Source: an uncultured cyanobacterium
Lineage (GTDB): Bacteria > Cyanobacteriota > Cyanobacteriia > Cyanobacteriales > CAWUOF01
DNA: 64,000 nt
Assembly (NCBI GenBank): GCA_963744145.1
Contig: CAVUSO010000001.1
Coordinates: forward strand, 6,560,001 to 6,624,000
Direction of reading: 5' to 3'
Under the pieces are notes generated by a model, which worked only from the letters and a program-made list of their open reading frames with translations, did not search any database and had not been told where the DNA came from. Below, piece by piece: positions 27,387 through 49,175 of this stretch. The stretch's first letter is position 1. Each line of letters opens with the position of its first letter. A program made the position numbers and the translations under genes.

Positions 27387-27968
27387 ATGAAAACTAGAAC
27401 TCGTATCCAGAAAAAGAAAAAACTTCCTTTCTCCTCTGTCTCTGAGTCGGAAGATCATCTGTTCCAAGCTCGTCCTTTTGCTGATGAGTCTGAAGGAGCA
27501 GAAATCGCTGATCTTAACCTCCAAAATGATCAGGAAGAACCAATTGGACATAATTTCTCTCAGATCCAGGTATCGGACAGAACAGCTATCCAACCAAAGG
27601 TTAGCTTAGGAGTACCGGGACATCATCCAAAACTCAAAGCGATCAAAGATAAACAGGATGGGGAAGTGTTGGATGCTCAAGCAATTTCCCAATATTTACA
27701 AACCTTACCTGATTGGACTATTATTGATGCCAAACTAAATTTTTCCGCTGAATATCCTGATTTAGTGGAAATGGAAAATTTTGTTAATTCTGTTAAAAAA
27801 GCCCAACAAGAAATTGGTCATCAAGCTGAACTAAAAATTAATGAAAATCAAGTCTCCATTACCCTAGTTACTCACGAAGTGGGAGGATTAACTGAAAAAG
27901 ATTTTACCCTAGCAAAAGCGATCTCACAATTAACCCAGGTAGAGGAAAATAATTCCCAGGAAGCCTAA
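27387..27968 (+). CDS. Pterin-4a-carbinolamine dehydratase-like domain with an N-terminal low-complexity leader
   Basis: LPDW...FVNSV...GHQAEL...VSITLVTHEVGGLTEKDFTLAKAI; leader contains FQARPF and GHNFSQIQV...IQPKVSLGVPG. Confidence 0.75.
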   Translation: MKTRTRIQKKKKLPFSSVSESEDHLFQARPFADESEGAEIADLNLQNDQEEPIGHNFSQIQVSDRTAIQPKVSLGVPGHHPKLKAIKDKQDGEVLDAQAISQYLQTLPDWTIIDAKLNFSAEYPDLVEMENFVNSVKKAQQEIGHQAELKINENQVSITLVTHEVGGLTEKDFTLAKAISQLTQVEENNSQEA

Positions 27969-27975
27969 GTAAAAA

Positions 27976-28018
27976 TACCCAGTAATTGACAATTAGAAAT
28001 CATCTCAATTACTAGGTA
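27976..28018. terminator. Hairpin between convergent genes
   Basis: TACCCAGTAATTGA ... TCAATTACTAGGTA. Confidence 0.55.
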
Positions 28019-28028
28019 ATTTTCCGGT

Positions 28029-28238
28029 TTAGATCCCTGGAATTTCTGACACTTTGCTTTTTATTTCCTGAACTTGAAAACTGGTAACTTCTTGCCATTC
28101 TTCAATGGTAAAATCATAGCCTAATTCTCCTGCCATTTTCACAAAATCTTCTAGACTAGGAGCGGAGTTGAGTCTTTCTTTTAATGTCTGATCAGTTTGG
28201 GCAGCTCGAAAGAGTTTAGTAACTTGCTCTTTTGCCAT
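28029..28238 (-). CDS. Nif11-like leader peptide family protein
   Basis: MAKEQV..LF.AAQTD..LKERL......EDFVKMAGELGYDFTIEEW. Confidence 0.8.
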   Translation of the reverse strand: MAKEQVTKLFRAAQTDQTLKERLNSAPSLEDFVKMAGELGYDFTIEEWQEVTSFQVQEIKSKVSEIPGI

Positions 28239-28354
28239 ATTTATTTAATTACCGATTTGAGGTCAAACTAACAATAACAATTAAGATTAAGTTTGTTGTC
28301 AAATTTAATAAAAATTAAAGAAACCCAGACCGGAAATCATCCCATTTAATAATT

Positions 28355-46900: not shown

Positions 46901-47172
46901 AACCACCAGCACCAGTGATCAATATTACCCAACCACCGTCACCTACAGCAATACCAATACCACCCACAGGGGTGACACCTGTACCTAATGCTCCCCCTTC
47001 TATAGTACCTACTGAATCTCCTCCATCTCCTCCATCTCCTCCATCTCCTCCAGGTGTTCCATCTCCTCCATCTCCTCCATCTCCTCCATCTCCTCCATCT
47101 CCTCCAGGTGTTCCCACACCTGCTGATCCAGATACGGTTTCACCTGTAGAATTACCTCCGCGTCCTGATTAA
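43951..47172 (+). CDS. Large single-pass membrane protein: wHTH-like N-terminus, Ig-like (COG1470-like) domains, TM, three Cys-pair repeats, Pro-rich tail
   Basis: Long ORF; TM WWQFWLIFLAILGAIWLLVFAIWWVFI; repeats start at 45451, 45811 and 46252. Confidence 0.8.
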   Translation: MTRPSFNPDAITTDFDQSQYLTDIAVLDLLNLSDSEREIVAWMISQGREVSLAEIVTNIGSQEGVTRILLNQLVDRGILEENWFADELRYQLRQVSGEERRILENGNSKPLVIIFNPSGDYAIAAGDTCDLCVTVNNKGNKNAIIDIFIDETSQFVRQWSRSYYERIALGTQQSSEIIFQLQIPVETLPGTYSYAIVIDAPAHYPEYTPIHHEARLQVLPPIGDTFLQVNDPTFTIDPVTSPQDPTVIQAGSVLQFTAIVHNRSDRVDRFRLNCLDLDQKWFTVRYPENLQTPGLVTTTTGLDLNPGAKGEIILLIHPPIDIWAGNYFPSVRLYAANNPDLVLLDVIYLQILPIYLITTEFRTMVGKVRKLPGLYEIKLNNLGNTVREIALIAKTADEDEFCTYTLEPSLIRLFPQSAGTVTLEVLPNPSKRSFYGRILSFIVELADPKNLPLPADRLQGTLIWEARPWWQFWLIFLAILGAIWLLVFAIWWVFIRPQDPPKIIEFGSTDGLYQETNDDFISLNWRISNPKLIEMIKITGQSTDGNATVQPVFYNFSQGIPEELKPFCAIQAELICQQVQTEARQPGDYTFELTIFPKKNIELQSETAKTNQIKIIPIPQPKVVEFTSVKPFYQETKLDINIPTLTAENQSLSPSDIPAATKNRGEAILLNWKIINPNQLKELRIIGRAPDSSVKNPLKRYDFSKGIPTELEKLCTLKENLVCQQVPTDARQAGDYIFELSTFSKKGKEIPIEAVKTDPIKIIPLPVAKVIELASVKPLYNAANNDTISLNWKIINFKQVKELRLIGQTADSSITTELRRYNFSQGVPEALKSFCQVDGEQLSCQGISTDVRSPGDYIFQVDLVAQSGQGEISDSKKTNNIKILSVPFKLVEFKLNGNDAFPKYVFPIAQTKKSVLLTLSWKIEGGADVKAELLPAPGSIPLSGITIYPISEKPGSETITLQIKNATGQQLTRSIIIETFDPTKPPAPVINITQPPSPTAIPIPPTGVTPVPNAPPSIVPTESPPSPPSPPSPPGVPSPPSPPSPPSPPSPPGVPTPADPDTVSPVELPPRPD
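47017..47115 (+). repeat. 9-bp tandem repeat encoding (SPP)n
   Basis: TCTCCTCCA x4, GGTGTTCCA, TCTCCTCCA x5, GGTGTTCCC. Confidence 0.92.
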
Positions 47173-47266
47173 AGCTTGAGCGGATTTAGCTGGTTGAAAT
47201 TAATTATCTTTTTTGTGATGACGCTAATTAGGGAGAGCAGTTATGTTAGAGTTATCGTCAAGATTG

Positions 47267-47304
47267 ACCTCTCCCCCAACCCCTCTCCTAAGAGGAAAGG
47301 GGAG
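47267..47304. repeat. REP-like palindromic element
   Basis: ACCTCTCCCCCAACCCCTCTCCTAAGAGGAAAGGGGAG. Confidence 0.55.
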
Positions 47305-47324
47305 CAAGAGCAAGAAGAATTAAA

Positions 47325-49175
47325 ATGCTAAAAACTAATTTTATTCTCTCTAATCAAATTAAGTCTTTTTACCGATGCTCTCCCTCAATTAGAAAAATCC
47401 TGGGAGTGTTGTTGTTATCTTGTTACTTTTTTTCCTTTGCTAACTCTCTGTTAGCTCAGGAAAAGTTAAAGGATTTTGATTATTGGGCTAGTTTGTGTAA
47501 GTTGTTACCAGAGGAGAAGAAATATCCTGATGCTGTAGCAGCTTGCGATCGCGCGATTGATCTGAATCCTGATCAGCCCGTTACTTGGACCGATCGGGCT
47601 CAGTCCCTGTTGAAATTAGCAAAATATACAGAAGCATTAGTTTCTGCTGATCGGGCAATTCGTCTCAAATCTGAATATGCTCTAGCTTTAGTTGAACGTT
47701 GTCAAGCACTGACAGAGTTAGGGAAATATGAAGAAGCGATCGCGACTTGTGATCGTTCTTTACGTGCTGATAATAATTGGGGTAAAGAAACACCGTTAGT
47801 TGCTTGGTATTATCGAGGTTTAGCTTTCAGAAAATTAGCCAAATATTCGGATGCGATCGCATCATTTGATCAAGCACTGAAAATTAAACCTGATGATGCT
47901 TTAGCTTTAGCCGATCGCTGTGGTTTATTATCAGAATTGGGGAAATATCAAGAGGCAATTTCTGCTTGTGATCTAGCTTTAAAAAGTGATGGTAATTGGG
48001 GAAATGCTACTCCAGCAGTTGCTTGGTTTAATCGGGGGTTAGCTTTAAAAAAATTAGGACGTTATGAAGATGCGATCGCATCTTTAGATAGTGCTTTAGC
48101 GATTAATCCTGCTGATCCGGTAATTTGGGCAAATCATGGTGTTTTACTGACTCTTGTTGGTAAAAATGCCGAATCTCTAGCTTCCTATCAATTTGCTTTA
48201 AAAATTAATCCAACCTATTCCTTTGCTTTAGTAAATCAATGTGTTTCCCAAAGTCGTTTAGGACAGTACAAAGAAGCTTTAACTTCTTGTGAATCTGCAA
48301 TTCAAGGTGATGGTAAATGGGAAGATGCTAGTCCTGCTCTAGCTTGGACTCAACGGGGAAATGCTCTGACTGGATTAGGTAGATATGAAGAAGCTATAGC
48401 ATCTCACGATCGAGCATTTACTCTCAAACCTAACTATGCTGAAGCTTGGAATAATCGCTCTGTAACTCTGTGGATTTTAGGGAGATATTCTGATGCTTTG
48501 ATTAGTAATAATAAAGCTACAGAAATTGATCCTAAGTATACCAAAGCTTGGTTTAATAAAGGTAGAATATTTAAAAGTTTAAATCGCTACGATCAAGCAA
48601 TTATTGCCTATGATCAAGCATTACAAACTACTGAGATTACTCCAATTAATAAATATTTATTTGCAGATATTTGGGCAAATCGTAGCGTTGTTTTGTGGTA
48701 TTTGAATAGAAATGCAGAAGCTTTAGTATCTACCGATCGGGCAATTAGTCTTAATTCTGATTCTTATCTAGCTTGGTATAATCGCGGTGTAGCTTTAGTA
48801 TCTTTAAATCGCTATGAAGAAGCTATTACTGCTTATGATCAAGCTATTCGGATCAATCCTACTGATGCGTTTGTTTTGACTCTTAAAGGTATTGATCTAA
48901 TGAAATTAAACAGACTGAATCCAGCTTTGGAGGTGCTGGAATCAGCTTTAAAAATTGATCCAAAAAATGCTCTTGCTCAAGAAAATAAAAATCTGGTAAT
49001 TAAAGAATTAGAAAGAATTAAGAAAGCAGAGGAATTGAAGAAAAAGCAGGAAGAAGAACAAAAGAAAAAAGAAGAAGAACAAAGAAAGAAACAAGAGGAA
49101 GAACAAAAGAAACAGGAGGAAGAACAAAAAAATAAAACTCCTGACCCGCAACCACATAATACTAATTTACCATAA
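47325..49175 (+). CDS. Exported tetratricopeptide repeat protein with a K/E/Q-rich tail
   Basis: Signal-like ILGVLLLSCYFFSFANSLLAQ; many AWxNRG.AL..LGRYEEA repeats. Confidence 0.9.
   Translation: MLKTNFILSNQIKSFYRCSPSIRKILGVLLLSCYFFSFANSLLAQEKLKDFDYWASLCKLLPEEKKYPDAVAACDRAIDLNPDQPVTWTDRAQSLLKLAKYTEALVSADRAIRLKSEYALALVERCQALTELGKYEEAIATCDRSLRADNNWGKETPLVAWYYRGLAFRKLAKYSDAIASFDQALKIKPDDALALADRCGLLSELGKYQEAISACDLALKSDGNWGNATPAVAWFNRGLALKKLGRYEDAIASLDSALAINPADPVIWANHGVLLTLVGKNAESLASYQFALKINPTYSFALVNQCVSQSRLGQYKEALTSCESAIQGDGKWEDASPALAWTQRGNALTGLGRYEEAIASHDRAFTLKPNYAEAWNNRSVTLWILGRYSDALISNNKATEIDPKYTKAWFNKGRIFKSLNRYDQAIIAYDQALQTTEITPINKYLFADIWANRSVVLWYLNRNAEALVSTDRAISLNSDSYLAWYNRGVALVSLNRYEEAITAYDQAIRINPTDAFVLTLKGIDLMKLNRLNPALEVLESALKIDPKNALAQENKNLVIKELERIKKAEELKKKQEEEQKKKEEEQRKKQEEEQKKQEEEQKNKTPDPQPHNTNLP

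Follow-up and report, generated by a model that had tools for sequence, protein, structure and literature searches.

A Streptomyces-type contractile injection system in cyanobacteria and its candidate membrane and sensor partner genes

How cytoplasmic contractile injection systems (CISs) find a membrane, and what triggers them, is an open question. The CIS of Streptomyces coelicolor (CIS-Sc) requires the bitopic membrane protein CisA for in situ firing (Casu et al., 2025), and CisA is the only such factor reported for Streptomyces, its contact with the particle being described as unproven. The same question is raised by a 64,000-nucleotide stretch (the window) of contig CAVUSO010000001.1 of an uncultured cyanobacterium (genome G000; genomes, contigs and loci are designated below by G, C and L numbers), in which tube-adaptor, spike and baseplate genes of a CIS stand among genes for membrane and sensor proteins. 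The original prediction, made from the letters of the stretch, held that this locus encodes its own docking and sensing apparatus. Protein families of the window were assigned from a listing of open reading frames (ORFs) together with Pfam and NCBIfam scans, and were followed through related genomes and structure predictions. Our results make it somewhat probable that the locus belongs to a cytoplasmic CIS with a conserved, lineage-specific set of membrane and sensor partners, through which membrane docking and gated firing would be achieved.

The window carries kaiABC and ycf54, which mark the organism as a cyanobacterium, and its CIS genes occupy positions 30806-40568 on the + strand (Table 1). 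The tube, Afp7-like, VgrG, PAAR, gp25, baseplate J, wedge and DUF4159 genes named in the original prediction were all recovered by the scans, all on the + strand, and the flanking proteins were as claimed there: a protein with a pseudokinase, a transmembrane segment (TM) and a periplasmic binding protein (PBP)-like domain, a heme-c/HAMP protein, two proteins with immunoglobulin (Ig)-like domains and a TM that lack a signal peptide, and a TPR protein whose N-terminus bears a hydrophobic segment. The tube adaptor also matched CIS5_fam (E 6.9e-27), below the cut-off of that model, and the Cis12-like wedge protein matched TIGR02242 (E 2.8e-42; 144 bits on the orthologue) and, again below the cut-off, CIS12_fam (E 7e-19). 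The Pfam scan detected no LysM domain in the Cis7-like protein. The PAAR protein is 86-93% identical to its counterparts in L019, L020, L021 and L052.

The window itself contains no sheath, cap or ATPase gene; these are encoded at other loci of G000. The sole sheath gene of the genome (G000:C1:4925355-4927043; PF04984 and PF17482 over their cut-offs) lies 1.6 Mb from the window, beside three gp19 tube paralogues, two small tail-assembly-like genes and a divergent Pvc16-type cap gene (Pvc16_N E 2.7e-42). An Afp15-like AAA ATPase is encoded at C1:3984727-3986562 and is 60% identical to the ATPase of a Pseudanabaena plasmid cluster. With the sheath at ~4.92 Mb, the ATPase at ~3.98 Mb and the baseplate in the window, the machine is thus encoded in at least three loci. 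The layout of these modules among relatives ranges from one contig (G036) through a span of 80 kb (G005) to different contigs (G013, G014 and G027). Three DUF4157 'eCIS core' (PF13699; eCIS, extracellular CIS) proteins are also encoded in G000 (domain positions C1:3981797-3982024, 4600748-4600981 and 3665045-3665275), in open frames of 915, 504 and 1249 amino acids (aa). One of the three genes is ~3 kb away from that of the AAA ATPase. All are distant from the baseplate genes, and their products are likely candidates for cargo.

The lineage of the system was placed by phmmer searches of the J orthologue and the sheath against the PDB. The J orthologue matched S. coelicolor Cis11 (PDB chain 9gtp_1K) with an E value of 4.3e-115, the next match being AlgoCIS with 2e-6. 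The sheath matched 8bky/9gtp (E 3.7e-109) and 8bl4/9gts (E 8.5e-107) over its full length, and Anabaena All3325 (E 7e-46) in the C-terminal domain only; 9GTP and 9GTS are models of CIS-Sc (Casu et al., 2025). Plasmid-borne sheaths of Streptomyces, Kitasatospora and Deinococcus were 36-39% identical over 99% of the length. Lineage IId has been described as comprising cytoplasmic CISs of Streptomyces, Roseiflexus and Deinococcota (ISME J 2026), and IId clusters are reported to occur in filamentous cyanobacteria (Vladimirov et al., 2023). By sequence similarity, the system belongs with the Streptomyces-type cytoplasmic CISs and not with the thylakoid-anchored CIS (tCIS) of Anabaena; the designation 'IId-like' is taken from best hits combined with the literature. 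Three relatives (G036, G028 and G020) carry in addition a second, more distant CIS gene set, presumed to be tCIS-like, which G000 does not have.

Which of the neighbouring genes go with the CIS was judged from two sets of relatives. The first comprised 41 genomes, namely G000 and 40 relatives, one from the same family and the others from different families within the order. A sheath orthologue was found in 11 of the 41, and the full-length pseudokinase-TM-PBP protein and the Ig-TM profile were found in the same 11, counts which, the genomes being kin, are not independent of one another and overstate the independence of the evidence. The other 30 genomes gave only PstS-like domain matches of ~30% identity to the pseudokinase-PBP protein, and at the thresholds used none of them contained the sheath, the full-length pseudokinase-PBP, the Ig-TM module or the shoulder domain, as the N-terminal domain of the DUF4159 protein is called here. 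The shoulder profile was recovered in 10 of the 11 sheath genomes and missed in G029 (89% complete, 640 contigs), and a J orthologue was found in 10 and not in G001 (92% complete, 850 contigs). Within G000, nothing but the two window genes matched the Ig-TM profile, and the shoulder profile had a single match.

The second set consisted of 34 loci anchored on the DUF4159 protein, from Nostocales, Coleofasciculus, Crinalium, Spirulina, Stenomitos, a Prochloraceae metagenome-assembled genome and others; the occurrence of each family in these loci, counted by tblastn, is given in Table 1. The low locus count of the pseudokinase-PBP gene results from the scattering of the modules. In seven of the nine relatives that have a J orthologue, the wedge gene is followed by the DUF4159 and WD40 genes; the contig of G029 stops there. 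In G036 the trio of DUF4159, Ig-WD40 and Ig-repeat genes has moved as a unit past the cap gene and stands on the opposite flank of the cluster. Gene content, homology, strict co-occurrence and synteny thus tie the pseudokinase-PBP protein, the DUF4159 protein and the two Ig-TM proteins to the CIS, and the conservation of accessory genes beside CIS genes in other genomes, by which the original prediction had asked to be judged, holds for these core families. Its proposal of a docking and sensing set receives partial support from them; the TPR protein and the heme/HAMP protein are not fixed members. Conservation of the TPR protein extends only to a subset, 4 of the 34 loci (L020, L021, L052 and L048) and G014 alone of the nine relatives.

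The gene that directly follows the wedge gene encodes the DUF4159 protein, in the position of a fibre protein. Residues 21-120 matched CIS13_fam of NCBIfam (E 1.1e-8), below the cut-off. An AlphaFold2 model of the whole protein showed two domains (predicted local distance difference test (pLDDT) 87.6, predicted template modelling score (pTM) 0.85), and its residues 202-453 superposed on the DUF4159 structure 4i66 with Z 16.3 and a root-mean-square deviation of 3.1 Å over 182 aligned residues; GATase1/ThuA-like folds were matched too. The search named VIA with the whole model reported only the C-terminal domain, and therefore the N-terminal domain was folded alone (pLDDT 83.5). The top ten Foldseek matches of this domain were all TssK or Anabaena CIS baseplate chains, the best being TssK 5y0e_A (E 7.1e-4, probability 1.00, TM-score 0.38). 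The wide VIA search, which is independent of Foldseek, placed receptor-binding protein (RBP) shoulders of phages, tail fibres, other phage tail and baseplate proteins, TssK and IglD at ranks 1-13 (Z 7.7-4.2), and unrelated rows started at Z 3.0. No convincing TM was found in the DUF4159 protein, the weak hydrophobic stretches lying inside the folded DUF4159 domain. We therefore read this protein, from the models, as a putative baseplate-attached connector in fibre position; its shoulder resembles TssK and phage RBPs, and so it would most likely sit on the wedge formed by Cis11 and Cis12.

The two Ig-TM proteins encoded downstream are bitopic paralogues. Their Ig-like N-terminal parts of ~350 residues (WD40 paralogue) and ~470 residues (repeat paralogue) precede the TM without an N-terminal signal peptide, and hhalign showed these parts to be homologous (probability 98.8%, E 4.7e-17) in an alignment of 321 columns that takes in the juxtamembrane motif. 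Orthologues of the WD40 paralogue measure 719-787 aa in 31 of 32 loci, the remaining one being cut at 604 aa by the end of its locus, and each has one conserved hydrophobic segment. The second paralogue of the window gave no Pfam match at E 0.01, and its orthologue matched NPCBM_assoc/Ig (E 4e-4) and MarR_2 (E 0.019). The charges flanking the TMs are ambiguous under the positive-inside rule. A profile search with the Ig-TM module returned 8868 representatives at E <=0.001, of which the best 150 were all strong. The nearest clusters in the ESM Atlas were Actinomycetota-dominated Ig-like proteins with scores of 0.85-0.88, under the 0.9 level at which a match is treated as a lead. Three Ig-TM paralogues, compared with two in G000, follow the DUF4159 gene on contig C108 of G001.

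A contact between the connector and these membrane proteins was predicted from the DUF4159 protein (alignment A5) paired with residues 1-340 of the WD40 paralogue (A7). Three runs gave values of the interface score ipSAE of 0.63, 0.63 and 0.61, with 0.00 for the best control; the mark applied is one that 116 of 157 solved complexes and 2 of 215 mismatched pairs attain, a calibration that holds only roughly here because the alignments were supplied by ourselves. The runs had at least 91% of contacts in common, with a partner pLDDT of at least 73. The predicted interface runs strand to strand between residues 67-149 of the shoulder and residues 31-104 of the first Ig domain (Ig1), including the most conserved motif of Ig1. 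Binding of the shoulder domain by Ig1 of the WD40 paralogue is thus supported by modelling, as is the shoulder fold itself, and the complex modelling of a TM protein with a baseplate-type protein that the original prediction had suggested came out in its favour for this pair.

The third partner is encoded upstream of the tube adaptor and combines a Zn-ribbon, a kinase-like domain, a single TM and a PstS-like PBP domain. An alignment of 11 orthologues (A4) retains K151, the invariant beta3 lysine in a V-IKEY motif, the glycine-rich loop and an invariant D304 in a DFG-like position, and four conserved cysteines upstream follow a Zn-ribbon-like CxxC pattern. The HRD motif reads H266-G267-N268 in all 11 sequences, and the position of the catalytic-loop asparagine is taken by serine or threonine; the protein is therefore considered a pseudokinase. 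These features speak against an active Hanks-type Ser/Thr kinase, the catalytic HRD aspartate and the loop asparagine both being replaced. The Pfam Pkinase model gave E 0.11 on the window protein and 1.6e-4 on the L048 protein. The N-terminal domain probably has a kinase-like, inactive fold, its residues having been assigned to kinase motifs by our own inspection of the alignment. In G000, G001, G013, G014, G023 and G036 the gene immediately precedes that for the tube adaptor, as it does in four of the six loci that show a tube adaptor (L020, L021, L052 and L048); the other two are L023, which has no upstream sequence, and L038, whose 973 upstream nucleotides gave no match. By its distribution and position, the pseudokinase-TM-PBP protein is a conserved partner of the CIS.

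The sensor gene that follows the DUF4159 gene in the window encodes a Tll0287-like c-heme domain with a CxxCH motif (CLRCH at residue 117 of the listed ORF). In several distant lineages the DUF4159 gene is immediately followed by a gene for a Tll0287- or dCache-TM-HAMP protein, often with a cyclic nucleotide monophosphate (cNMP)-binding domain, the carriers being the window, G014, G028, L036, L041 and L046. These sensor genes precede the Ig-WD40 gene wherever a WD40 gene is present; L046 shows none. The sensor is of the Tll0287 type in the window and G014, and of the dCache type in G028 and L041 and in the triple arrays of L036 and L046, and G005 has a CHASE2 protein between the PAAR and gp25 genes. 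The heme/HAMP gene, presented in the original prediction as a part of the system, therefore turned out to be one variable member of a sensor-TM-HAMP class. Two or three dCache-TM-HAMP genes in tandem follow the DUF4159 gene at L036 (11163-15955), L046 (11397-15955) and L012 (16972-19901). Such arrays were seen in Spirulina, an uncultured bacterium and G028, the last gene carrying a cNMP-binding domain and no enzymatic output; a sensor-HAMP-cNMP protein without catalytic output is an unusual architecture.

Four window genes, those for J, the wedge protein, the WD40 paralogue and the Tll0287 sensor, are broken by frameshifts that are absent from their orthologues. The J gene breaks near 37427-37440, the L019 orthologue aligning with 35821-37440 in frame 1 and with 37427-38017 in frame 2, and 27 of 29 loci have a J orthologue in one ORF of 721-794 aa, those of L038 and L042 being shorter. 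The wedge gene breaks near 38313-38370, and its orthologues form one ORF of 335-408 aa. At 43702 in the WD40 gene the last ~65 residues run on in frame 2, where they align at 43703-43891. The 5' end of the Tll0287 gene is displaced at an A-run near 40704, the N-terminal TM segment being encoded upstream in another frame (frame 0) from ~40575 and aligning with a 529-aa Tll0287-HAMP-cNMP protein of G014. The breaks were checked against contigs from one public run (X1; depth about 1-5), in which a base is missing at 43702 and an extra A stands behind 40704, each change restoring the frame. All four breaks fall at short homopolymers by our own reading of the sequence, and the genome is in 4 contigs; indels at short homopolymers together with few contigs are typical of long-read assembly. 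We conclude that all four breaks are likely to be indel errors of the assembly, as demonstrated at 43702 and 40704 and by extension in the J and wedge genes.

Taken together, these observations are consistent with the following course of events. Particles would be assembled in the cytoplasm, where the shoulder protein would couple the baseplate to the bitopic Ig-TM proteins, whose Ig domains would be cytoplasmic. This coupling would bring the baseplate to either the cytoplasmic or the thylakoid membrane. Docking or firing may be gated by the pseudokinase-PBP and HAMP proteins, with their putative extracytoplasmic ligand-binding domains, and firing would harm the envelope of the producer itself and lead to regulated cell death as in Streptomyces. 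We infer the membrane docking, the topology, the signal gating and the cell-death outcome from the partner set, and consider membrane docking or triggering plausible. Only tentatively do we go further and suggest a receptor-wired cytoplasmic CIS, in which a TssK-like connector, the Ig-TM proteins, the pseudokinase-PBP and interchangeable heme/dCache/CHASE2-HAMP sensors might couple signals of the periplasm or lumen to docking and firing and so serve signal-gated self-lysis in multicellular cyanobacteria. Such an arrangement would resemble the link between baseplate and membrane complex in the type VI secretion system (T6SS), with no sign of shared descent.

Several points weigh against a docked and gated cytoplasmic CIS, beyond the kinship of the genomes and the rough calibration of the interface score. 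The system is known here wholly in silico, from genes and models. The shoulder-fold matches are moderate, with Z values (4.2-7.7) all below 8 and Foldseek TM-scores of 0.2-0.4. Most Nostocales loci have no sensor gene, and where one is present its type varies; the pseudokinase-PBP gene is not beside CIS genes in G005 and G027. The X1 contigs listed no difference at the J and wedge breaks, where their cover is thin or ends. A tape-measure gene was not identified in G000, for which no tape-measure family model was searched; a 1338-aa protein of G005 had no match there. Finally, the Sco4256-4258 proteins of Streptomyces have been read as effectors, being described as toxic in E. coli and their deletion as giving empty particles.

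This last point opens another interpretation, namely that the Ig-TM proteins are cargo or effectors, loaded through the shoulder protein and driven on firing into a membrane, where their C-terminal WD40 or repeat domains would act, the pseudokinase-PBP alone being a CisA-like adaptor. Their architecture is that published for Sco4256-4258, a PapD-chaperone-like N-terminal domain, one TM and a variable C-terminal domain, and weak PapD-like and Cep192_D3 matches were found on the N-terminal regions. Homologues of Sco4256 from cyanobacteria, Chloroflexi and Deinococcus are reported in IId clusters (Vladimirov et al., 2023, Supplementary Data 4), and tblastn with the N-terminal module gave weak matches a few kb from the CIS sheath gene on three Deinococcus plasmids. 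A contact with a protein at the periphery of the baseplate, moreover, fits a loading site as well as a tether. The likeness to Sco4256, however, is one of architecture, and WD40 and Ig repeats are not toxin-like. The two paralogues stand side by side with conserved C-terminal domains in 29 of the 34 loci, whereas effector genes usually vary more. Since G000 encodes three DUF4157 proteins, one beside the CIS ATPase gene, a separate cargo is plausible, and this tilts the balance mildly towards the Ig-TM proteins being anchors or adaptors. We regard their being effectors as doubtful, though a possibility to be reckoned with.

It is unlikely that the genes encode an ordinary extracellular CIS, released by lysis against other organisms, with the shoulder-DUF4159 protein as a receptor-binding fibre and the membrane proteins concerned with assembly, regulation or release. 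An RBP shoulder on a protein in fibre position would suit this purpose, DUF4157 effectors, typical of eCISs, are present in the genome and in related plasmid clusters, and VgrG and PAAR form a penetrating spike. The nearest characterised relatives, however, are cytoplasmic (those of Streptomyces, and of Roseiflexus and Deinococcota), the head of the DUF4159 protein is of the GATase1/ThuA-like type found in the cytoplasm and not a lectin or fibre knob, and the shoulder is predicted to bind one of the producer's own membrane proteins. Least probable of all is a decaying system in G000, with its genes scattered over at least three loci, several of them frameshifted, and no working machine, as might be suggested by four frame breaks in a 7-kb span of the window, modules 1-2.6 Mb apart and the tape-measure gene that was not found, since two of the four breaks (43702 and 40704) are contradicted by the contigs of an independent run, the breaks fall at homopolymers in a 4-contig genome as in long-read assembly indels, and relatives whose genes are intact, such as G013, G014 and G027, as a rule have scattered modules too.

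Comparison with known systems places the docked cytoplasmic CIS proposed here closest to CIS-Sc (IId; 9GTP/9GTS, 8BKY/8BL4), which is the nearest solved relative of the J/Cis11 protein and the sheath and has the same core genes. CIS-Sc is also described as having its own bitopic firing protein and particle-associated single-TM proteins with a shared N-terminal domain. Unlike it, the cyanobacterial genes are split into distant modules. CIS-Sc is reported to have no fibre-like component, whereas the cyanobacterial system has the shoulder-DUF4159 protein (10 of 11 genomes), and the CisA-type gene is reported downstream of the wedge gene, whereas the pseudokinase-TM-PBP gene lies upstream of the tube adaptor. 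CisA (SCO4242) itself, compared by architecture, is laid out like the pseudokinase-TM-PBP protein: it is described as cytoplasmic in its N-terminal part, which is followed by one TM and by a domain outside the cytoplasm that has been likened to periplasmic substrate-binding domains. Its N-terminus, however, is reported to be largely unstructured, where the cyanobacterial protein has a Zn-ribbon and a predicted pseudokinase fold. The Streptomyces clavuligerus cluster differs in that its Cis7 is annotated with LysM. A 584-aa protein in fibre position on the S. clavuligerus plasmid was compared with the DUF4159, pseudokinase-PBP and Ig-TM profiles and resembled none of them (hhalign probabilities of 0.07%, 0.13% and 1.8%); the cluster may just be without these three families.

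The Sco4256-4258 proteins, again compared by architecture, share with the Ig-TM proteins an Ig/PapD-like N-terminal domain, one TM, a variable C-terminal domain and several paralogues per cluster, and are reported from IId clusters of filamentous cyanobacteria. The cyanobacterial C-terminal domains, however, consist of a WD40 propeller in one paralogue and a repeat region in the other, where ricin or lectin/toxin-like domains are described for the Streptomyces proteins, and the cyanobacterial Ig-TM protein has a predicted contact with the baseplate shoulder. TssK is among the best, if moderate, matches of the shoulder fold, and a producer membrane protein as predicted partner recalls TssJLM. 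Unlike TssK, the connector has a DUF4159 head in place of the TssK head, and the predicted contact is made by the shoulder and not by the head. The cap, the AAA ATPase and the DUF4157 proteins are likewise of eCIS or cytoplasmic CIS type, different from a T6SS (TssJLM and ClpV were not among the genes searched).

The Anabaena tCIS (7B5H) has a Cis13 with its own TM, a Cis12 extension (All3315 610-1100) and a Cis19 crown, Cis13 and the baseplate extensions forming the anchor. It is alike in being cyanobacterial, intracellular and membrane-attached, properties that the present system would have judging from its genes alone, and in the weak match of the DUF4159 N-terminus to the CIS13 family. The two differ in lineage, only the C-terminus of the sheath being matched. 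The Cis13-like protein here has no TM, the TMs being in separate proteins, and the Cis12-like orthologues measure 335-408 aa in contrast to the All3315 610-1100 extension. The IId CISs of Roseiflexus and Deinococcota share the wider lineage and a presumed cytoplasmic action; the report on them states that they have no close cisA homologues, for which reason another adaptor is expected (ISME J 2026). Weak Ig-TM matches lie beside Deinococcus CIS genes. One of these, on a Deinococcus taeanensis plasmid (NZ_CP083458.1 378557-379030), is 6 kb from the sheath gene and falls within a gene whose annotation is that of an FHA domain-containing serine/threonine kinase, a second link between a kinase-type protein and a IId-type CIS.

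IId-type clusters in cyanobacteria, and Sco4256-like genes in them, are already known (Vladimirov et al., 2023). In open-access full text, no report was found that ties DUF4159 to contractile injection, though dbeCIS, Chen et al. (2019) and Supplementary Table 2 of Weiss et al. (2022) may list such clusters, and none that joins 'cytoplasmic contractile injection' with Nostoc. The terms 'contractile injection system' and 'pseudokinase' came together there only in a review, and a search for CIS with cyanobacteria, CHAT and WD40 gave nothing relevant among the best 15 of 66 open-access matches. To the question of how a cytoplasmic CIS reaches a membrane, this lineage offers a conserved candidate set, composed of a connector, two bitopic partners, a pseudokinase receptor and swappable sensors, and one concrete predicted interface, that of shoulder 67-149 with Ig1 31-104. 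The same system is present in Nostoc, Cylindrospermum, Anabaena and other strains recorded as cultures, which makes knock-outs and cryo-electron tomography feasible. If the proposal is true, environmental sensing would be linked to regulated cell death in multicellular cyanobacteria.

Table 1. Features of the window, with one gene beside the distant sheath module, and their occurrence in the 34 related loci
Feature	Coordinates	Strand	Family evidence	Related loci (of 34)
Split SAM (S-adenosylmethionine)-methyltransferase-like gene, two overlapping ORFs (140, 154 aa)	15430-16186	-		
Polysaccharide-export gene	25656-27218			0
Pterin-4a-carbinolamine dehydratase-like, 193 aa	27387-27968	+	PF01329 E 1.6e-19	0
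Zn-ribbon, probable pseudokinase, single TM (422-440), PstS-like PBP, 776 aa	28355-30685	+	PBP_like_2 at residues 495-744	4
gp19-type tube, CIS5-like tube adaptor, 179 aa	30806-31345	+	PF06841 E 1.5e-40; TIGR02241 150 bits	
156-aa protein, variable slot between tube adaptor and Cis7	31348-31818	+	none in Pfam or NCBIfam	0
CIS_tube, Afp7/Cis7-like tube initiator, 170 aa	31863-32375	+	PF19266 E 7.3e-19	20
VgrG-related spike, 722 aa	32425-34593	+	Phage_base_V E 2.5e-27; Phage_GPD; NF033848 333.7 bits (cut-off 275)	21
ssr2422-family small thylakoid membrane protein, 93 aa	34685-34966	+	NF053525 E 7.4e-35, 119 bits (cut-off 38)	0
PAAR spike tip, 98 aa	35022-35318	+	PF05488 E 1.8e-7, 31.7 bits (cut-off 27)	
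gp25-like sheath initiator / wedge protein, 120 aa	35405-35767	+	PF04965 E 1.1e-19	29
Baseplate J / Cis11-like wedge protein	35821-38020 (split 35821-37461 + 37484-38020)	+	TIGR02243 702 bits on orthologue	29
Cis12-like wedge protein, P2 gpI	38068-39110 (split 38068-38403 + 38331-39110)	+	Tail_P2_I E 7e-10	29
Fibre-position protein, 462 aa: TssK/RBP-shoulder-like N-domain (~1-195), DUF4159 (GATase1/ThuA-like) head with coiled-coil insert	39180-40568	+	DUF4159 (PF13709) E 1.7e-8, 34.7 bits (cut-off 25.9)	anchor of the set
Membrane sensor: N-terminal TM, Tll0287-like c-heme PAS-like domain, second TM, HAMP, no output domain	40575-41662 (listed ORF 40736-41662)	+	PF11845 E 3.2e-39, 135 bits (cut-off 24.1); HAMP E 1.3e-5	3 (Tll0287-HAMP)
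Bitopic WD40 paralogue: three Ig-like domains, one TM (~347-365), WD40 propeller	41737-43891 (listed ORF ends 43713)	+	WD40 E 2.2e-18; FixG_C Ig E 2e-6	32
Second bitopic paralogue, 1073 aa: weak winged helix-turn-helix-like N-terminus, three Ig-like domains, strong TM (472-490), repeat C-terminal region	43951-47172	+		29
TPR protein, 616 aa	47325-49175	+	TPR_1 E 1.8e-88; hydrophobic segment at 25-43	4
LamG giant protein, 2169 aa	49573-56082	+	five Laminin_G_3 domains	0
TPR-CHAT (caspase-like) protease, beside sheath module	G000:C1 ~4920122-4922689 (L002 8122-10689)	-		22 (downstream of second Ig-TM gene)

Other genes of the region were considered as parts of the system and set aside for their absence from the related loci. 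These were the LamG gene directly downstream of the TPR gene, whose product also contains a Gly-zipper segment, the polysaccharide-export gene and the pterin dehydratase gene, which is found upstream only in G001, the sole genome of the same family, and is probably a mere neighbour. The ssr2422-family protein combines a repeated DVDKLST coiled-coil segment with a C-terminal TM at residues 73-91. Its gene sits between those for VgrG and PAAR, a place that leaves no room for an insertion in G001; it is an insertion specific to G000, odd inside a spike operon, and may have arrived there by chance. The 156-aa slot protein has a homologue only in G001, and in G005 the same slot is filled by the 1338-aa protein mentioned above.

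Outside the window, the TPR-CHAT protease encoded beside the sheath module, a homologue of which is also near the cluster in G005, is a possible CIS-linked executor of cell death. Close CIS relatives, with sheaths 62-74% identical, are carried by plasmids of Pseudanabaena, Kovacikia and Brasilonema (NZ_AP017564.1 (L067), NZ_CP083583.1 and CP030123.1), and this plasmid carriage may explain the patchy spread of the system across cyanobacterial families. The Pseudanabaena plasmid also bears psbA and bchE nearby. The two overlapping minus-strand ORFs of the window resemble one methyltransferase split by a frameshift, its domains falling on the second ORF, and may reflect another assembly indel.

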